DNA of 64,000 nucleotides from Candidatus Woesearchaeota archaeon (GCA_016188045.1 JACPIM010000002.1:17198-81197); one strand, 5' to 3'. Counted from the stretch's first letter, positions 5,283-58,120 are shown. Made by a program: numbers and translations. Notes: generated from the sequence alone by a model not told the origin.

Positions 5283-5312
5283 TGGTCTTAGCACTTTCTT
5301 AAAGTGCTAATT
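5283..5312. repeat. palindromic motif copy A (ttttatggtcttagcactttcttaaagtgctaat) with a perfect 10-bp stem
   Basis: ttagcacttt / aaagtgctaa is a perfect inverted repeat with a 3-nt loop, immediately 3' of the GT2 gene 5312..6250. A near-identical copy occurs at 42259-42290. Confidence 0.5.
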
Positions 5313-21388: not shown

Positions 21389-22129
21389 ATGGAAACTCAG
21401 ACTAAAAAATATGAACCAAGAATCATTAGGGGAAGAATAGAATTATGGGTTCCCCATCAATATGGAGAAATAGCCTTTGCTCCATTAACAAATCTGGGTG
21501 ATTATCAACAGATCAGAACAGAAATTCTTGGTGATAGTGAAAGAGAAACTAACCAAAGGCTTCCAACAGGAGACGAAACTGCCTCTCAAATTCATGTTGC
21601 TTACTGTACTCCAAAGCCAGAAATTAAAAATGCGCAGGAATATAAAACAATTAGAGATATAATTAGAACAAATCGGATTCATGTTTTTAACAGAATTGGC
21701 TGGACTTTTGCAGGAAAGTATGTTCTACAAGATACAACAGCAAACGCCACAAGTGAACGATTAGATATAGATATGCTTAATGAAATGCTTAAAAACGGAA
21801 CAGAAATTAATGGTGTTAAATTCAGCACAGATGGAAGAGTTAGATTTGCTCCAAGAGAAACTTATAAATTAGGCAAACATACGCCAGAGTCATTATCATT
21901 AGACGGAGGTGTTATTGCTGAATATGGTATAGACGGTGCGAGAAAGCTTGCAGAAGTTTCTAAAAATTTTAGATATAATACAGTTACTTATGGAATTGAA
22001 GTTAAAAAAAGAAAGGATTTAGAGCAAAGAGTGTCCGCGTTTATTGGCGACGTCGGCAACTGGCTTTTTCTTAACGGCGGCTACCATGGTGACAGCGTGG
22101 GCGGTTGTGCTTCCGGGGTATGGAAGTAG
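21389..22129 (+). CDS. hypothetical protein, candidate DGR variable (target) protein with the VR at its extreme C-terminus
   Basis: 246 aa with no recognised domain and visibly GC-richer than its neighbours. The last 29 codons (..VSAFIGDVGNWLFLNGGYHGDSVGGCASGVWK*) are the variable copy of a repeat whose template copy lies 330 nt downstream. Confidence 0.5.
   Translation: METQTKKYEPRIIRGRIELWVPHQYGEIAFAPLTNLGDYQQIRTEILGDSERETNQRLPTGDETASQIHVAYCTPKPEIKNAQEYKTIRDIIRTNRIHVFNRIGWTFAGKYVLQDTTANATSERLDIDMLNEMLKNGTEINGVKFSTDGRVRFAPRETYKLGKHTPESLSLDGGVIAEYGIDGARKLAEVSKNFRYNTVTYGIEVKKRKDLEQRVSAFIGDVGNWLFLNGGYHGDSVGGCASGVWK
22032..22117 (+). repeat. DGR-like variable repeat (VR), in-frame at the 3' end of CDS 21389..22129
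   Basis: An 86-nt copy of 22359..22444 with 20 mismatches, 16 of them at positions that are adenine in the downstream copy. The 3' 14 nt (ggttgtgcttccgg) are identical in both copies. Confidence 0.6.
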
Positions 22130-22358
22130 TGGCGAAGCCACCGAAAATTTTTTAGTAAATTTTATTAACAAGTAGTCTTATTATTTTTTCTGTCTTAGTG
22201 AAGCATAAATCTTATAATTCCAATTTGGAAAGGTTTTTGTTTTACTAGGGCTGCATGTCAATTTACTAGTGCATGGACGATTGAGTCTAAATGCCATGAA
22301 ATTCAGAAATTCCTTACGAGGGATTTTGGTGATTAATCGGTAAATTGGCTACACAATT

Positions 22359-22444
22359 GGTCCGCGCTTAATGACGACAACGGCAACAGGCTTAACCTTA
22401 ACGGCAACTACCATGATAACAACAGGAACGGTTGTGCTTCCGGA
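22359..22444 (+). repeat. DGR-like template repeat (TR), AAC-codon rich, non-coding
   Basis: In the VR reading frame it reads ..DDNGNRLNLNGNYHDNNRNGCASG, with 7 AAC codons in 19. Every AAC except two is replaced in the VR by G/T changes at the A positions. No ORF of the VR frame continues through it. Confidence 0.55.
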
Positions 22445-22515
22445 ATAGCTCTATTCACTAAGACATTATATTTAATATGGAAGCTAATAAATTTTATTCT
22501 TGTTGGTTTCTATTT

Positions 22516-42258: not shown

Positions 42259-42290
42259 TTGGGGTCTTAGCACTTTTTAAAAGGGCTAAT
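42259..42290. repeat. palindromic motif copy B (ttttggggtcttagcactttttaaaagggctaat)
   Basis: About 26/31 identity to copy A, with a 10-bp stem carrying one mismatch. It overlaps the 5' end and start region of the GT4 gene 41203..42243. Confidence 0.5.
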
Positions 42291-44045: not shown

Positions 44046-44240
44046 CCCTGAATAGTAAAATGATGTTTCCAACAATAAAAACACCAGCTAAGATAAGCCA
44101 GGTAAGATTATCTGTGACCACAGTTATAAACATAAACAAGATTGCTAAAATACTAAGTCCTGTTTTTATAATATCATTAGCTATTGTCATTTTTTAATCA
44201 CCATATAACTTTAAATATTAAAGATTTGCCTTATTTAAAG

Positions 44241-46955
44241 ATGATGGGGACAACATCTAAGGAAAAGGCTAAAGAAGAACTTAAAAAACTTATTGAAGAC
44301 TTTAAGATTAATTATCAAGACTACAAGAAGTTAGCAGAAGCAGATATAGAAACAAAGCTAGTTGAAGAATTATTTATTAAAGTATTAGGGTGGACTAAAA
44401 ATGACTTTTTTAAACAAACAAAGACAAGAAGAGAAAGTAAAGGTGGAAGAGCTGATTACGAGTTTAGAATTAATGATAGAATAGTCTTTTTTTTAGAAGT
44501 TAAAAAAGTAGATGTTAATTTAGATAAAGAGGCTAATAAACAAGTAATATCTTATGCTCTTTCAAGAAGAATCCCTTTTGCGATTTCTACCAATTTTAGA
44601 CAATTAAATATTTTCTGTGTTGAACAAGAAAACGCAGTTAATAATGTATTTAGAACTTTTAAAAGTCCAGATGATTACCTCAACAGTTTTGAGGATTTGA
44701 TGTTTCTATCTAAAAAATATTTTGAAAATGGTTTAACCCTAAAAAAAGCAGAAGATGAAAGAAGATTAAAAAAGAGGATAACTATTGACAAAACCTTACT
44801 GAATGATTTTATGCATATAAGAAGCTTGATAGCTAATGATATAGAAAAAAATTATTATGGAACATATGGTATTAATGATAAAGACGAGATAGTACAAAGA
44901 ATTTTAGATAGATTAATTTTTATTAGAAAATGTGAAGATACGGGGATTAATCCAGAAAATATCGTCTTAAGAGAAGTACAATCATTACCACATAACAAAG
45001 CATATCCCAAATTAAAGGAAATTTTTAAGAAATATAATGATATTTACAATAGTGGGCTTTTCGCTATTACGAGAGATAATGATTGTGATACTATAGACGT
45101 TAATGGATTAATAATAAAAGAATTAATTGATTATTTATACGAATCCAAAGATAAACAATATGTCTATAATTTTGATTGGATTGATGCCGATATTTTAGGA
45201 CAAGTTTATGAGCAGTATTTAGGAAAGATATTGGCTCAAACAAAATCAGGTAAGGCTAAACTTAAGGATGGACAATATCATAGAAAAGAACAAGGAATAT
45301 ATTATACTCCAACTTATGTGGTAGATTATATTGTTAAGAGTACGTTAGGGGAATTATTAAAGGATAAAAAAATTGAAGTTAAGAAGTTAAAAATATTAGA
45401 CCCCGCCTCTGGTTCTGGGAGTTTCTTGATTAAAGCATTTGATTACCTAAATGAAGATATATCCAAAACAGATGAATCTAAACAAAGAAAATTCGATAGT
45501 CAGGGGCTTTATTCTATTAAAACAGAAATTTTAAAGAATAACTTATATGGTGTAGATTTGGATAACAAAGCTGTGGAAATAACTAAATTAAACTTACTCC
45601 TTAAGGCTTCTGAAAAGGATAGAAAATTACCTGAAGAACTTGATAGACATATAAAACATGGAAACAGTCTAGTTGATGATGAAAATATTGATAAAAATGC
45701 ATTTAATTGGGAGGATGATTTTAAAGAAGGTAGTTTTGATGTAGTTATAGGTAATCCGCCTTATGTTTTTACAAGAGATGTTGAATTTCAGGATTTATTC
45801 AAAAATTATGTAGCAAAACATTACTTAAATGCTTCAGAATCAATTTCAAAAAGCCATGCGAGACAATCAGGGAAAGTTAATCTATATGCTTTATTTTTAA
45901 TTAAAGGAATTAGGTTGCTTAAAAATCACGGCTTATTTGGATTTATTATACCAAATAATATCTTGAGAACTACTACTTATGACATAATAAGAAAATTTAT
46001 CTTAGATAATTGTAAAATTCTAAAAATCGTTGATTTGGGAGTGGGTGTTTTTGAAGGCGTTACTGCTTCAACTATAATCTTAATCCTAGAAAAAGAGAAT
46101 GAAAAAACAAAAAGGGACAAAAATAAAGCTAGTATTTATTCAGATGTTAACAATTCATCAGATAAAAAGGAAGTTGAACAAAAAGAATTTTTAGGTAATA
46201 CTAGCTATGCCTTTAATATAACTTTGGGAAAAGAAGATAGAACCCTTTTTGATAAAATAGAAAAAAACACGATTCCTTTAGGTGGAATAACCACTATCCA
46301 TGCAGGAGGGATAGCGACAGGAAAAAATAAAAAAGAGATGATAGAAAACTATCCTAAAAATTCTAAATATAAAAAGATGTTAGAAGGCAAAGACATAAAC
46401 CCCTACTATCCTCAATTCTCAAATAGGTATATTTTATATGAAAAGAAACTGTTGTATAGGGCAAGAGAAGAATCTATATTCCTAAACCCAGAGAAATTGG
46501 TTACGCAAAGAATAGGCGGGGGGAATAAGGTTTTGGTTGTAAGCTATGATAACCAACAATTCTATACTTTCAATTCTACAAACACCATTCTTCCTAAGGA
46601 CAAAAATTATCCTTTGAAATATCTTGTTGCAGTATTAAACTCAAAGTTAATAAATTGGTATTATGTAAATAAATTTACTAATAAATCTGAATTAACAGTT
46701 AATATATCAAAAACATTCTTAGAACAACTTCCCATAAAAGATACTTCTGAATCCCGAAAACGAGTAATTATAGAAATGGTAGATAAAATTATAAGTTATA
46801 ACAAAGACTTGGCAAGATTGGGTGATAAAACTACATCTGAAACTAAAGAACTGAATGATAAGATAGAAAAGTTAGATAAAGAAATTAATAAAACTGTTTA
46901 TGATTTATATGGGATTACTGAAAAAGAAAAGGAAATAATTGAAAAACTGGAATAG
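44241..46955 (+). CDS. Type IIG/IIL restriction-modification enzyme (MmeI-like: N-terminal endonuclease + N6-adenine methyltransferase + TRD in one chain)
   Basis: About 905 aa. LDPASGSGSFLI (motif I), VVIGNPPYVFTRD (NPPY motif IV, N6-A MTase) and an N-terminal PD-(D/E)xK-like ADYEF..FLEVKK. Size and order match MmeI. Start taken at ATG 44241 rather than the table TTG at 44184. Confidence 0.75.
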   Translation: MMGTTSKEKAKEELKKLIEDFKINYQDYKKLAEADIETKLVEELFIKVLGWTKNDFFKQTKTRRESKGGRADYEFRINDRIVFFLEVKKVDVNLDKEANKQVISYALSRRIPFAISTNFRQLNIFCVEQENAVNNVFRTFKSPDDYLNSFEDLMFLSKKYFENGLTLKKAEDERRLKKRITIDKTLLNDFMHIRSLIANDIEKNYYGTYGINDKDEIVQRILDRLIFIRKCEDTGINPENIVLREVQSLPHNKAYPKLKEIFKKYNDIYNSGLFAITRDNDCDTIDVNGLIIKELIDYLYESKDKQYVYNFDWIDADILGQVYEQYLGKILAQTKSGKAKLKDGQYHRKEQGIYYTPTYVVDYIVKSTLGELLKDKKIEVKKLKILDPASGSGSFLIKAFDYLNEDISKTDESKQRKFDSQGLYSIKTEILKNNLYGVDLDNKAVEITKLNLLLKASEKDRKLPEELDRHIKHGNSLVDDENIDKNAFNWEDDFKEGSFDVVIGNPPYVFTRDVEFQDLFKNYVAKHYLNASESISKSHARQSGKVNLYALFLIKGIRLLKNHGLFGFIIPNNILRTTTYDIIRKFILDNCKILKIVDLGVGVFEGVTASTIILILEKENEKTKRDKNKASIYSDVNNSSDKKEVEQKEFLGNTSYAFNITLGKEDRTLFDKIEKNTIPLGGITTIHAGGIATGKNKKEMIENYPKNSKYKKMLEGKDINPYYPQFSNRYILYEKKLLYRAREESIFLNPEKLVTQRIGGGNKVLVVSYDNQQFYTFNSTNTILPKDKNYPLKYLVAVLNSKLINWYYVNKFTNKSELTVNISKTFLEQLPIKDTSESRKRVIIEMVDKIISYNKDLARLGDKTTSETKELNDKIEKLDKEINKTVYDLYGITEKEKEIIEKLE

Positions 46956-55774: not shown

Positions 55775-56428
55775 TTAACATCTAACTCCCAGACTCATTA
55801 AGTCTTGTTTTAATTTATTAGCATCTAAATCATTTTTAGTATCATACACAATACCATGCATTCCTAATTCATTTGCAACAGCAGCATATTTTGCCTTATC
55901 ATCAATATACGCACAATTCCCAGCTTTAGAACCAGATCTCCGCAAAGCTTCTCTGTAGATCAAATGGTTTGGTTTCATTACACCGACCCCATAGGAAGTA
56001 ACAATTCCACCTTGTTCAAATTTACTTAATGTTTTTGGCATTAATCTCCATGCTTGTTGCATGTTTAAGGGATCTGTATTCGATACTGCCAGCAATTTAT
56101 ACCTACCATATAAACTATTAATTAAATCACAAACTGGTTTATTTGGTCCTAATATTAAACTATTCCATAAATTTGCAAATTCAAAAAAAGACAAGGCATT
56201 TTGACTTATGCCTAAAGCTTCACAACTTCTTTCATAATACCCCAAAGAACTTATCTTACCAGTATTATGTAATCTGTCTGGTCCAAGACTTTCTGGTGTG
56301 TCATCAAAAATTTTTGCTACTCCTTCTTTACTTCTCGAACTTAACTTAGCAAACCATTCATAAACAGGATCCATACTAAAAAAATAACAAACATCTCCAA
56401 GATCAAACATAATTGTTTCTATTGCCAT
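55775..56428 (-). CDS. HAD-superfamily phosphatase, YihX-like (subfamily IA variant)
   Basis: N-terminal IMFDLGDVCYFF (compare E. coli YihX IFDLGNVIVDID) and a C-terminal YIDDK motif. Paralog of 57446..58120; both end ..LGVRC. Confidence 0.6.
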   Translation of the reverse strand: MAIETIMFDLGDVCYFFSMDPVYEWFAKLSSRSKEGVAKIFDDTPESLGPDRLHNTGKISSLGYYERSCEALGISQNALSFFEFANLWNSLILGPNKPVCDLINSLYGRYKLLAVSNTDPLNMQQAWRLMPKTLSKFEQGGIVTSYGVGVMKPNHLIYREALRRSGSKAGNCAYIDDKAKYAAVANELGMHGIVYDTKNDLDANKLKQDLMSLGVRC

Positions 56429-57445: not shown

Positions 57446-58120
57446 TTAACATCTAACTCCCAATTTTCTTAAATCATTTATCAATAATTCATCTCTTTTA
57501 TCTTCATTATCCCAATCATAATGTACACCACGCATTCCTAATATTATGGCTGGTTTAACATACTTTAGTCTATCATCTACATAAACACATTCATCAGATT
57601 GAGCATTTGCAACTGCTATTGCTTCCAAATAATTTTTTTCATTTGGTTTCATACTGCCAACTTTATATGATGTAACAATTCTACCTTTAAATAATCTCAT
57701 AGTAGCAGGAATAATATTCATAATCTGCTTCATTTGTATTGGGTTAGTATCACTTAATGAAACCAACTGATAACCCCTGCTATCTAATCGTTGTGCTAAA
57801 CCACATACCGGTTTATTTTCAGTAAAAATATCACCCCAAGCCCTAGCAAATTCATCAAAACTCATATTTTTTAATTTTAATCTTTCACACATCCACTTAT
57901 AAAATTCTTCATCACTAATAACATTAGTATTATACCTAGCTAATGTATCCGTTTTTTTAGAAGTACCGTATTTTAACACTTCTTTATCAGAAGTTTCATA
58001 AACAATTCCTTCCATTTGAGAAGCAGGAACATCAGTAAACCTAGCAAATCCATTCCAAGCCCTATTAAGGTCAAAATCAACCAAGACTTTGCCTAAATCA
58101 AAAATAACTGTTTTTATCAT
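57446..58120 (-). CDS. HAD-superfamily phosphatase, YihX-like (paralog 2)
   Basis: MIKTVIFDLGKVLVDFD and YVDDR motifs. The C-terminal LRKLGVRC tail is shared with 55775..56428. Confidence 0.6.
   Translation of the reverse strand: MIKTVIFDLGKVLVDFDLNRAWNGFARFTDVPASQMEGIVYETSDKEVLKYGTSKKTDTLARYNTNVISDEEFYKWMCERLKLKNMSFDEFARAWGDIFTENKPVCGLAQRLDSRGYQLVSLSDTNPIQMKQIMNIIPATMRLFKGRIVTSYKVGSMKPNEKNYLEAIAVANAQSDECVYVDDRLKYVKPAIILGMRGVHYDWDNEDKRDELLINDLRKLGVRC

Follow-up and report, generated by a model that had tools for sequence, protein, structure and literature searches.

The locus described here raises the question of whether a coding end that recurs in nearby non-coding DNA, with mismatches concentrated at adenines, is the variable repeat and template repeat (VR and TR) of a diversity-generating retroelement (DGR), and of what becomes of such an element when no reverse transcriptase (RT) gene accompanies it. 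The DNA comes from a Candidatus Woesearchaeota MAG, a DPANN archaeon, which agrees with the type of host that a sequence-only reading of the same stretch had supposed. The window, by which we mean the whole stretch of 64,000 nucleotides that was analysed, is 64 kb of a 233.5-kb contig.

The repeat pair and its target gene

The target gene, the two repeats and the elements at their ends are as follows.

21389..22129, + strand: target gene MBI2498652.1 / HYV88_00245, encoding a 246-aa AvpA-like variable protein with a C-type-lectin fold
22033..22120, + strand: VR, the last ~28-29 codons of the target ORF; the mutagenised part ends at ~22102
Last 18 nt of the VR, + strand: IMH-like end, GGTTGTGCTTCCGG (22103-22116) followed by GGTA where the TR has AATA
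22129-22141, + strand: GC hairpin GTGGC-GAA-GCCAC, overlapping the stop codon and followed by T6 (22148-22153)
22360..22447, + strand: TR, non-coding, with 25 mutable adenines; its final 4 nt, AATA, are an IMH*-like end

Positions 22032-22117 and 22359-22444 align without gaps over 86 nt and differ at 20 positions, which read from TR to VR are 11 A>G, 5 A>T, 2 G>T and 2 C>T. Sixteen of the 20 mismatches therefore lie at template adenines, as the sequence-only reading had claimed, and the tabulation by template base that it had proposed is adenine-specific, with 16 of 26 TR adenines mismatched compared to 4 of 60 other bases (Fisher p=1.5e-7, 86-nt frame). Its mismatch counts of 16 and 4 stand, its totals of about 28 adenines and about 58 other bases do not, and the offset from VR to TR is 327 nt instead of the 330 nt given. 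A repeat search placed the core repeat at 22033-22116 and 22360-22443 (84 nt, 15 A and 3 non-A mismatches), and the two outermost columns of the 86-nt frame lie at or past the ends of this core. The pair was the sole long repeat of its kind that the search found in the window, and no VR for this TR other than the known one was found in the 64 kb. The repeat has a G+C content of 51-59% compared to 30% for the window. In the core, each of the three non-A changes arose in the VR and produced a T (22040 C>T, 22069 C>T and 22098 G>T). Non-A-to-N differences occur in 23% of DGRs and are frequent in the CPR/DPANN set (Wu et al., PMC5758913), and three in the 84-nt core fall inside the published DGR range (PMC5758913).

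Read in the frame of the VR, the TR translates as SALNDDNGNRLNLNGNYHDNNRNGCASGI, the reading that had been given for it. Codon positions 1 or 2 hold all of the mutable TR adenines (25/25), and changing them never yields a stop codon; the 16 variable codons allow ~3.5e14 possible protein variants. The GC-rich 14 nt at the 3' end, GGTTGTGCTTCCGG, are the same in VR and TR, so the invariance noted earlier for this segment holds.

We considered whether the pair could be an ordinary short duplication whose non-coding copy drifted to A/T, the adenine bias then being a by-product of AT mutation pressure. The genome indeed has a G+C content of 30%, and of the two copies the non-coding one is richer in A. 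However, the bias is strand-specific: a TR A faces a VR G or T 16 times and a TR T faces a VR C or G 0 times, a pattern that simple AT-driven decay of a duplicated copy cannot produce, and at the 4 non-A mismatches it is the VR that has T. Moreover, conservation lies with the TR and divergence with the VR. A larger ordinary duplication, which the sequence-only reading had named as an outcome that would speak against a DGR, was looked for; the similarity breaks off abruptly on either flank and the repeat is thus not part of a larger duplication. With the AvpA-like fold of the target and the identical architecture, RT included, of other cassettes (both below) also against it, this explanation is effectively refuted and we give it almost no credence.

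The target ORF (21389-22129) has no Pfam match and no paralog in the 64-kb window. A PDB sequence search with a profile of the target family gave no significant match and only a fold search succeeded, predicting a C-type-lectin fold with the archaeal DGR variable protein AvpA as the best structural match. This is the kind of fold that the earlier reading had suggested looking for, and, as in proteins of the AvpA type, the VR supplies its C-terminal strands at the binding site. That reading had also considered a surface or ligand-binding protein plausible. A surface location is not borne out: neither a signal peptide nor a transmembrane segment was found, and the protein appears soluble and cytoplasmic-looking. 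The glycosylation surroundings it described are present, with glycosyltransferases, a PMT_2 protein and methyltransferases as neighbours of the target.

AvpA reportedly belongs to a Nanoarchaeota DGR presented by Paul and colleagues in 2015. Both it and the window cassette are archaeal (DPANN) DGRs whose target is a small, single-domain, non-FGE protein with a C-type-lectin fold and a ~27-residue VR rich in AAY codons. In both the IMH encodes a non-variant beta5 strand (RFxGV in AvpA, xAFGV or CASGV in the window family) and a hairpin lies past the VR. The two proteins differ in that they share 12% sequence identity with no detectable sequence homology, in that the VR of the window protein is at the extreme C-terminus whereas AvpA has 46 residues more, and in that the window cassette is without an RT. 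The AvpA structure is that of Handa et al. 2016 (PMC5006420, PDB 5IOO). Most other members of the window's target family have no TR or RT nearby, and AvpA homologs are likewise partly outside DGRs (Handa et al., PMC5006420).

Related cassettes and the RT-16 RNA

Homologs of the target, 22 of them, were found in DPANN metagenomes. A body of ~215 residues is conserved and the ~30 residues between EQRVSAL and G.AFGVL are hypervariable family-wide. Gene-context look-ups and one metagenome scan yielded ~100 loci, among which 22 cassettes including the window have a VR/TR pair, and the other 21 show the same A-only signature. Most cleanly aligned pairs have 0-2 non-A mismatches, with 3 in the window and L027 and 4 in L041. 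In every 3'-aligned pair the VR ends in GGGGTA/G and the TR in GGAATA, GAAATA or similar, and this fixed GG versus AA contrast is of the IMH/IMH* type. A short GC hairpin, most often with a GAA triloop, was present 8-10 nt past the VR in 14/20 related cassettes; the sequence of its stems varies between loci and their complementarity is kept. The window's own hairpin and T tract (22129-22153) are either a hairpin/cruciform-type DGR target element or else a terminator.

Where enough downstream sequence was available, almost all relatives encode an RT of 340-400 aa that begins ~10-30 nt past a conserved motif following the TR (confirmed next to the TR in, for example, L011, L034, L041, L045 and L053). 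The exceptions, with no RT right after the TR, are the window lineage, L010 and L047. The relatives' RT carries the DGR-type motifs GNLTSQFFANIYL and YVDD. It has thousands of relatives, and those with named sources come from Pace-, Woese- and Nanoarchaeota. An accessory protein (of the Avd or HRDC type) is not universal among DGRs. The interval from VR to TR is filled by an RNA motif, RT-16, and an ORF listing found no conserved ORF after the RT in 10 related loci; thus no Avd was seen by this approach. Cys-rich membrane proteins of 588 aa and 422 aa past the RT in L011 and L016 were considered as accessory factors and set aside since they are not conserved across cassettes. The adenine-specific mismatches, the predicted AvpA-like fold, RT-16 beside the TR and the DGR-type RT after the TR in relatives all support the DGR identity first proposed from the repeat pair, and we conclude that the locus is almost certainly a DGR target/template module, of a type frequent among DPANN archaea.

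The RNA and the elements around it map to the window as follows.

22161..22168, + strand: TATA-box-like TTTATTAA, ~30 nt upstream of the RNA 5' end
22193..22357, + strand: RT-16 RNA (Rfam RF03019), full length (1-158/158), 54.1 bits against a gathering score of 50
22352..22358, + strand: CACAATT, 7 nt directly 5' of the TR, forming helix D with the TR 3' end GGTTGTG (22430-22436)
22446..22464, + strand: conserved segment 3' of the TR, TAGCTCT...CACTAAGAC, pairing with RT-16 in helices A and B

RT-16 is the single Rfam match in the whole window and its 3' end adjoins the TR, stopping 2 nt before it. It was found between VR and TR in 22/22 cassettes, scoring 55-104 bits in the 21 others; most scored 70-104 bits, and the window lineage and L010 scored 54-58 bits. 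The window lineage has a shorter inner RT-16 hairpin, which is present too in the RT-bearing loci L028 and L085. The invariant G|TCTTAG at which RT-16 begins is preceded in 18/22 cassettes by an element of the TTTATTAA type, which starts 29-32 nt upstream. This element is a probable archaeal promoter of the RT-16/TR transcript, and if it acts as a TATA box then RT-16, the TR and, where present, the RT would form one transcript.

An alignment of 21 full RNAs, starting at the 5' GTCTTAG and ending 6 nt beyond the CTAAGAC that follows the TR, was analysed with RNAalifold, which predicted four long-range helices. Helix A joins 22192-22200 to 22456-22464, and its core, GUCUUAG with CUAAGAC, is complementary and invariant. 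Helix B joins 22247-22253 to 22446-22452, with G-C replaced by A-U in 7 sequences and U-A by C-G in 3. The stem already known from RT-16 is helix C (22257-22266 with 22340-22349). In helix D (22352-22358 with 22430-22436), 5/7 pairs show compensatory changes and 97% of cells are paired. Overall 96.2% of cells were paired compared to 88.0% in shuffles, none of which reached this value (0/500; the sequences are related), double-change cells numbered 79 compared to 27 in shuffles, and slid registers were only 24-48% paired. The core of helix A is without variation, and helices A and B compete with the P1 hairpin of the Rfam model. The covariation supports an extended fold that appears to join RT-16, the TR 3' end and the downstream flank. 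A start of cDNA synthesis just 5' of helix D was also considered and dropped, as this segment carries an A>G change in L053.

RT-16 belongs to the set of 'RT' motifs discovered in the vicinity of reverse transcriptase genes (Weinberg et al. 2017, PMC5737381). Of these, RT-10 alone was tied to a DGR, and a DGR connection was put forward as a speculation for some of the others (PMC5737381). The window match is like the family in being full length and over the gathering score for a motif that was defined by proximity to RT genes. It differs in not lying beside an RT gene, the RT having been deleted here; an adjoining RT gene is present in almost all relatives whose sequence reaches far enough. 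Weinberg et al. left the function of the family open, whereas the window places RT-16 between a probable transcript start and the 5' boundary of the TR, and RT-16 appears to be one component of a more extensive fold, to which the TR 3' end and the flank also belong.

A comparison with the prototype DGR, that of Bordetella phage BPP-1 (mtd-avd-TR-brt), gives a similar mix. Shared features are the adenine-specific transfer from TR to VR, a GC-rich IMH with an IMH* that differs at its 3' end, a hairpin downstream of the VR and pairing across the TR, which in BPP-1 is the avd:Sp 'cPRT Stop' duplex (10.1101/2023.10.23.563531) and in the window would be helices A and B. The avd:Sp duplex has been predicted for 207 Avd-containing DGRs (Handa et al., 10.1101/2023.10.23.563531). 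In contrast to BPP-1, no Avd gene was seen in the window cassette, the structured RNA lies mainly 5' of the TR (RT-16) and not 3' of it (Sp, the counterpart of Rfam RT-10), the TR and the RT are set only ~30 nt apart in the window family, the host is an archaeon and the window copy is RT-less.

Loss of the reverse transcriptase

No RT was detected in the 64-kb window by motif scan, by tblastn with a cognate RT or by a profile HMM of 58 related RTs, whose score on the six-frame translation stayed at <=9.8 bits. ORFs of the window with a Y.DD motif were rejected as RTs and are GT2 glycosyltransferases or HAD-like proteins. At the position where relatives have the RT start, one remnant was recognised.

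22477..22500, + strand: stub of the deleted RT gene, ATGGAAGCTAATAAATTTTATTCT (MEANKFYS), 8 codons

The stub shares 20/24 nt with the RT start of L010 (METSNLYS...) by hand count on the alignment, and its distance from CTAAGAC is that of intact RT starts. Past the stub the similarity to L010 ceases, ~15 nt before the end of a convergent methyltransferase gene. A sister lineage (P0002, loci L003-L009) is syntenic with the window, and its representative L003 has a deletion junction identical to that of the window. Elsewhere L010 retains RT residues 1-43, L016 retains ~73-100 C-terminal residues, L047 has no RT remnant and in five further loci the RT is split over two frames, which together indicate that loss or erosion of the RT is recurrent in this cassette family.

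An RT encoded elsewhere was sought in several ways. No HYV88-tagged RT was among the best 120 of ~8000 RT matches (homologs of the L011 RT), and a search of viral contigs with the single L011 RT gave no match. A scan of genome contigs with the post-TR motif returned only an own-species contig, the L011 MAG and one random GC-rich match, and the own-species contig (JACPBN010000066.1) stops inside RT-16. For the RT stub of L010, no especially close RT was present among the collected proteins.

DGR targets that are incomplete or remote from their RT have been described in Thiohalocapsa PB-PSB1 (PMC10907252) and in Treponema and Legionella (PMC5758913). The window resembles these in having no working local RT, a VR with an A-only signature and components proposed to lie elsewhere. 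It differs in that the TR is usually supplied in trans there, whereas the window keeps its own TR and RNA scaffold and is without the RT alone. For the window cassette, trans activity is inferred from evolutionary comparison.

Constraint and probable homing after the loss

Loss of the RT could have left a dead relic, that is a non-functional cassette whose VR would be one frozen allele of an ordinary protein, with the RT-16/TR region kept for another reason (a promoter or terminator, an unrelated RNA role or concerted evolution). The lack of an RT in the 64 kb and the frequency of RT erosion in the family fit this explanation, as do the 3 non-A mismatches of the window VR, which being VR-side and all to T are what AT-biased decay would give. 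The divergence between the two RT-less lineages argues against it. Genes flanking the cassette are 92-93% identical in nucleotides to those of L003, with pS of 0.23-0.30 and pN of 0.02-0.04, and the non-coding cassette (22117-22515) has 11 differences in ~400 columns (~2.75%), making it ~8-10x more conserved than synonymous sites. Against L010 the cassette has diverged by 10.7% and the target has a pS of 0.31. With L010 as the outgroup, the changes derived in the window amount to 6 mutational events in 8 alignment columns; 2/6 are in helix B and both turn pairs into G-U, so that pairing is kept. The slow divergence of promoter, RT-16, TR and 3' segment points to purifying selection after the RT was lost, and a promoter or terminator would not account for a conserved stretch of such length and uniformity.

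The two repeats have behaved very differently over the same interval. Between the window and L003 the TR is 97.6% identical and the VR 77.4%, and the VR differences fall at 15/26 TR-A sites compared to 4/58 other sites (p=1e-6). The VR/TR pair of L003 has 21 A mismatches and 0 non-A mismatches. One of the two TR differences is a T>C derived in L003, at the equivalent of window position 22414, and the L003 VR shares this base. A VR carrying the derived base of its own TR implies that the sister lineage underwent homing at least once after the deletion that both lineages share, and homing after the deletion presumably involved an RT acting in trans. Neither the derived base nor the lack of non-A mismatches is expected of a dead relic.

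A less likely alternative to an RT in trans is that the VR-TR segment was imported. The VR differences would then have come by homologous recombination from strains with an intact, RT-bearing cassette and no homing would have taken place in an RT-less genome. The pS of the target gene against L003, 0.137, is below the 0.23-0.30 of the flanking genes and hints at gene flow, and the same aquifer metagenomes also contain cassettes of this family that have an RT. However, an RT-bearing allele of this lineage was found in 0/11 contigs and import leaves the purifying selection on the cassette unexplained, and we regard it as quite improbable.

Homing, if it continues, is infrequent. The sister lineage has a single VR sequence across 7 contigs, whose strains are 0.1-1% apart genome-wide, and L007 has two TR SNPs, neither of which is present in its VR. 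TR SNPs in L009 were discounted as they are at a contig end. Clusters of the target protein at 90% identity contain one sequence each, and no VR polymorphism was visible among the available assembled strains. A VR fixed across strains together with the 3 non-A changes in the window VR suggests that homing is rare at best. These 3 changes are about the number expected by neutral decay since the lineages split; the window VR may not have been rewritten since roughly that time, and it is for the sister lineage that homing after the deletion is supported. The invariant sister VR and the TR SNPs that did not propagate are also what a dead relic would show. Given the constraint and the rewritten sister VR, we consider a dead relic unlikely, although far from negligible, and clearly less so than import.

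An RT supplied in trans remains the reading that we prefer, since constraint on the cassette after RT loss and a rewritten sister VR together make it the most likely source. We think it somewhat probable that the module is, or recently was, serviced in this way. Under the mechanism we propose, RT-16 would clamp the 3' end of the TR and the flank beyond it in the folded RT-16/TR RNA. A DGR RT would copy the TR into cDNA with random misincorporation opposite adenines, and the GC-rich IMH-like end together with the hairpin past the stop codon would guide this cDNA in replacing the VR. The RT would most likely be supplied by another DGR locus of the same genome. Several DGR loci are common in DPANN genomes and incomplete bacterial DGR loci diversified in trans have been described (PMC10907252), and experiments have established that avd, TR and brt function when supplied in trans (PMC5758913). 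Taken as a whole, the best explanation of the locus, and a probable one, is the target and template half of a DGR whose cis RT was deleted, likely served by an RT in trans and with rare homing. A more specific version is plausible but in our judgement falls a little short of probable. It describes an RT-less 'satellite' cassette of target, promoter and RT-16/TR RNA that is under purifying selection and rarely rewritten by the RT of another locus, with RT-16 as the 5' half of an archaeal, Avd-less DGR RNA that clamps the TR.

DGRs in DPANN archaea and AvpA-type lectin-fold targets have already been described, and the window is an AvpA-type DPANN cassette that has lost its cis RT. For RT-16, an orphan Rfam motif, the cassettes suggest a role in an Avd-less archaeal DGR together with exact boundaries, from the probable transcript start to the 5' edge of the TR. 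The extended RT-16/TR fold would be a second, compact DGR RNA architecture to set beside the BPP-1 ribonucleoprotein, and if the RT-16 clamp is correct this architecture is unlike the Sp-centred one of BPP-1. The target, a hypervariable protein with a predicted lectin fold that looks cytoplasmic, is encoded in a glycosylation island of an archaeon of the episymbiont type, a setting that gives a hint at its binding partner. The comparison of the two RT-less lineages provides evolutionary evidence that a template cassette can outlast its own RT and stay in use, and such cassettes bear on the number of DGR targets missed by surveys that are anchored on RT genes. If the satellite reading is true, DPANN genomes would harbour distributed DGRs, with a single RT working on several autonomous template RNAs.

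Divergence of the target gene and an upstream insertion

The body of the target gene without its VR (window 21389-22030) was compared with L003, the sister lineage that shares the RT deletion. pN/pS was ~0.44 (0.060/0.137) for this body and 0.07-0.16 for the flanking enzymes, and pS of the target-gene body was below that of its neighbours. This suggests that relaxed or diversifying selection acts on the target gene beyond the VR as well. Relative to the window, L003 also carries a two-gene insertion immediately upstream of the target gene:

L003 7003-9725, flanked by the counterparts of window 21322 and 21389: 2',5' RNA ligase family protein and AAA_14/DUF4143 ATPase

Alternative RNA folds and assembly breaks within RT-16

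The 5' end of the DGR RNA, GUCUUAG, was invariant in the alignment (A4 columns 1-70, corresponding to window 22192-22253) and has two possible partners. Pairing with CUAGGG within RT-16 forms the Rfam P1 hairpin, while pairing with the post-TR CUAAGAC forms helix A, and these two folds are mutually exclusive. The alternatives could act as a conformational switch. The same heptamer, as GTCTTAG, opens a near-palindromic element, GTCTTAGCACTTTCTTAAAGTGCTAA. This element lies at a gene boundary, and a second boundary holds a related copy (window 5285-5310 and 42264-42290). That the heptamer occurs in both the element and the DGR RNA is probably a coincidence.

In two assemblies produced independently for one strain, contigs broke at most 10 nt apart inside RT-16 (window 22315-22324):

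Logan contig L002: ends at window ~22315, inside RT-16
GenBank contig JACPBN010000066.1 (L023): starts at window 22324, 100% identity

A further RT-16/TR copy of similar sequence at another place in the genome could account for these paired breaks, as could a local polymorphism.

Other features of the window

Two further features were annotated:

44184-46955: fused restriction-modification enzyme of 923 aa, Type IIG/Eco57I-MmeI type, with HSDR_N, N6_Mtase/Eco57I and TaqI_C domains
55775-56428 and 57446-58120: pair of paralogous genes of ~220 aa each, whose DNA repeats D5/D6 lie 1.67 kb apart

Both paralogs contain Y[IV]DD motifs, located near the C-terminus of short ORFs, and no RT-profile similarity was found for either.

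Gene neighbours and apparent RT erosion in related cassettes

HicA/HicB toxin-antitoxin pairs adjoin the target gene in two unrelated family members (L011 9494-9918 and L014 7015-7487). Recurring Cys-rich proteins with a signal peptide and a C-terminal anchor (588 aa and 422 aa) were seen near some cassettes but lack family-wide conservation:

L011 12182-15732, L016 7266-11110 and L053 958-1980: Cys-rich signal-peptide/C-terminal-anchor proteins

The RT match was split into two pieces in different frames in five related cassettes (L035, L059, L084, L085 and L100), and two more loci retained N- or C-terminal RT remnants alone (outgroup L010, 5609-5749; L016, 6823-7131). Assembly errors are a possible alternative source of such matches; RT erosion seems to be frequent in this DGR family.
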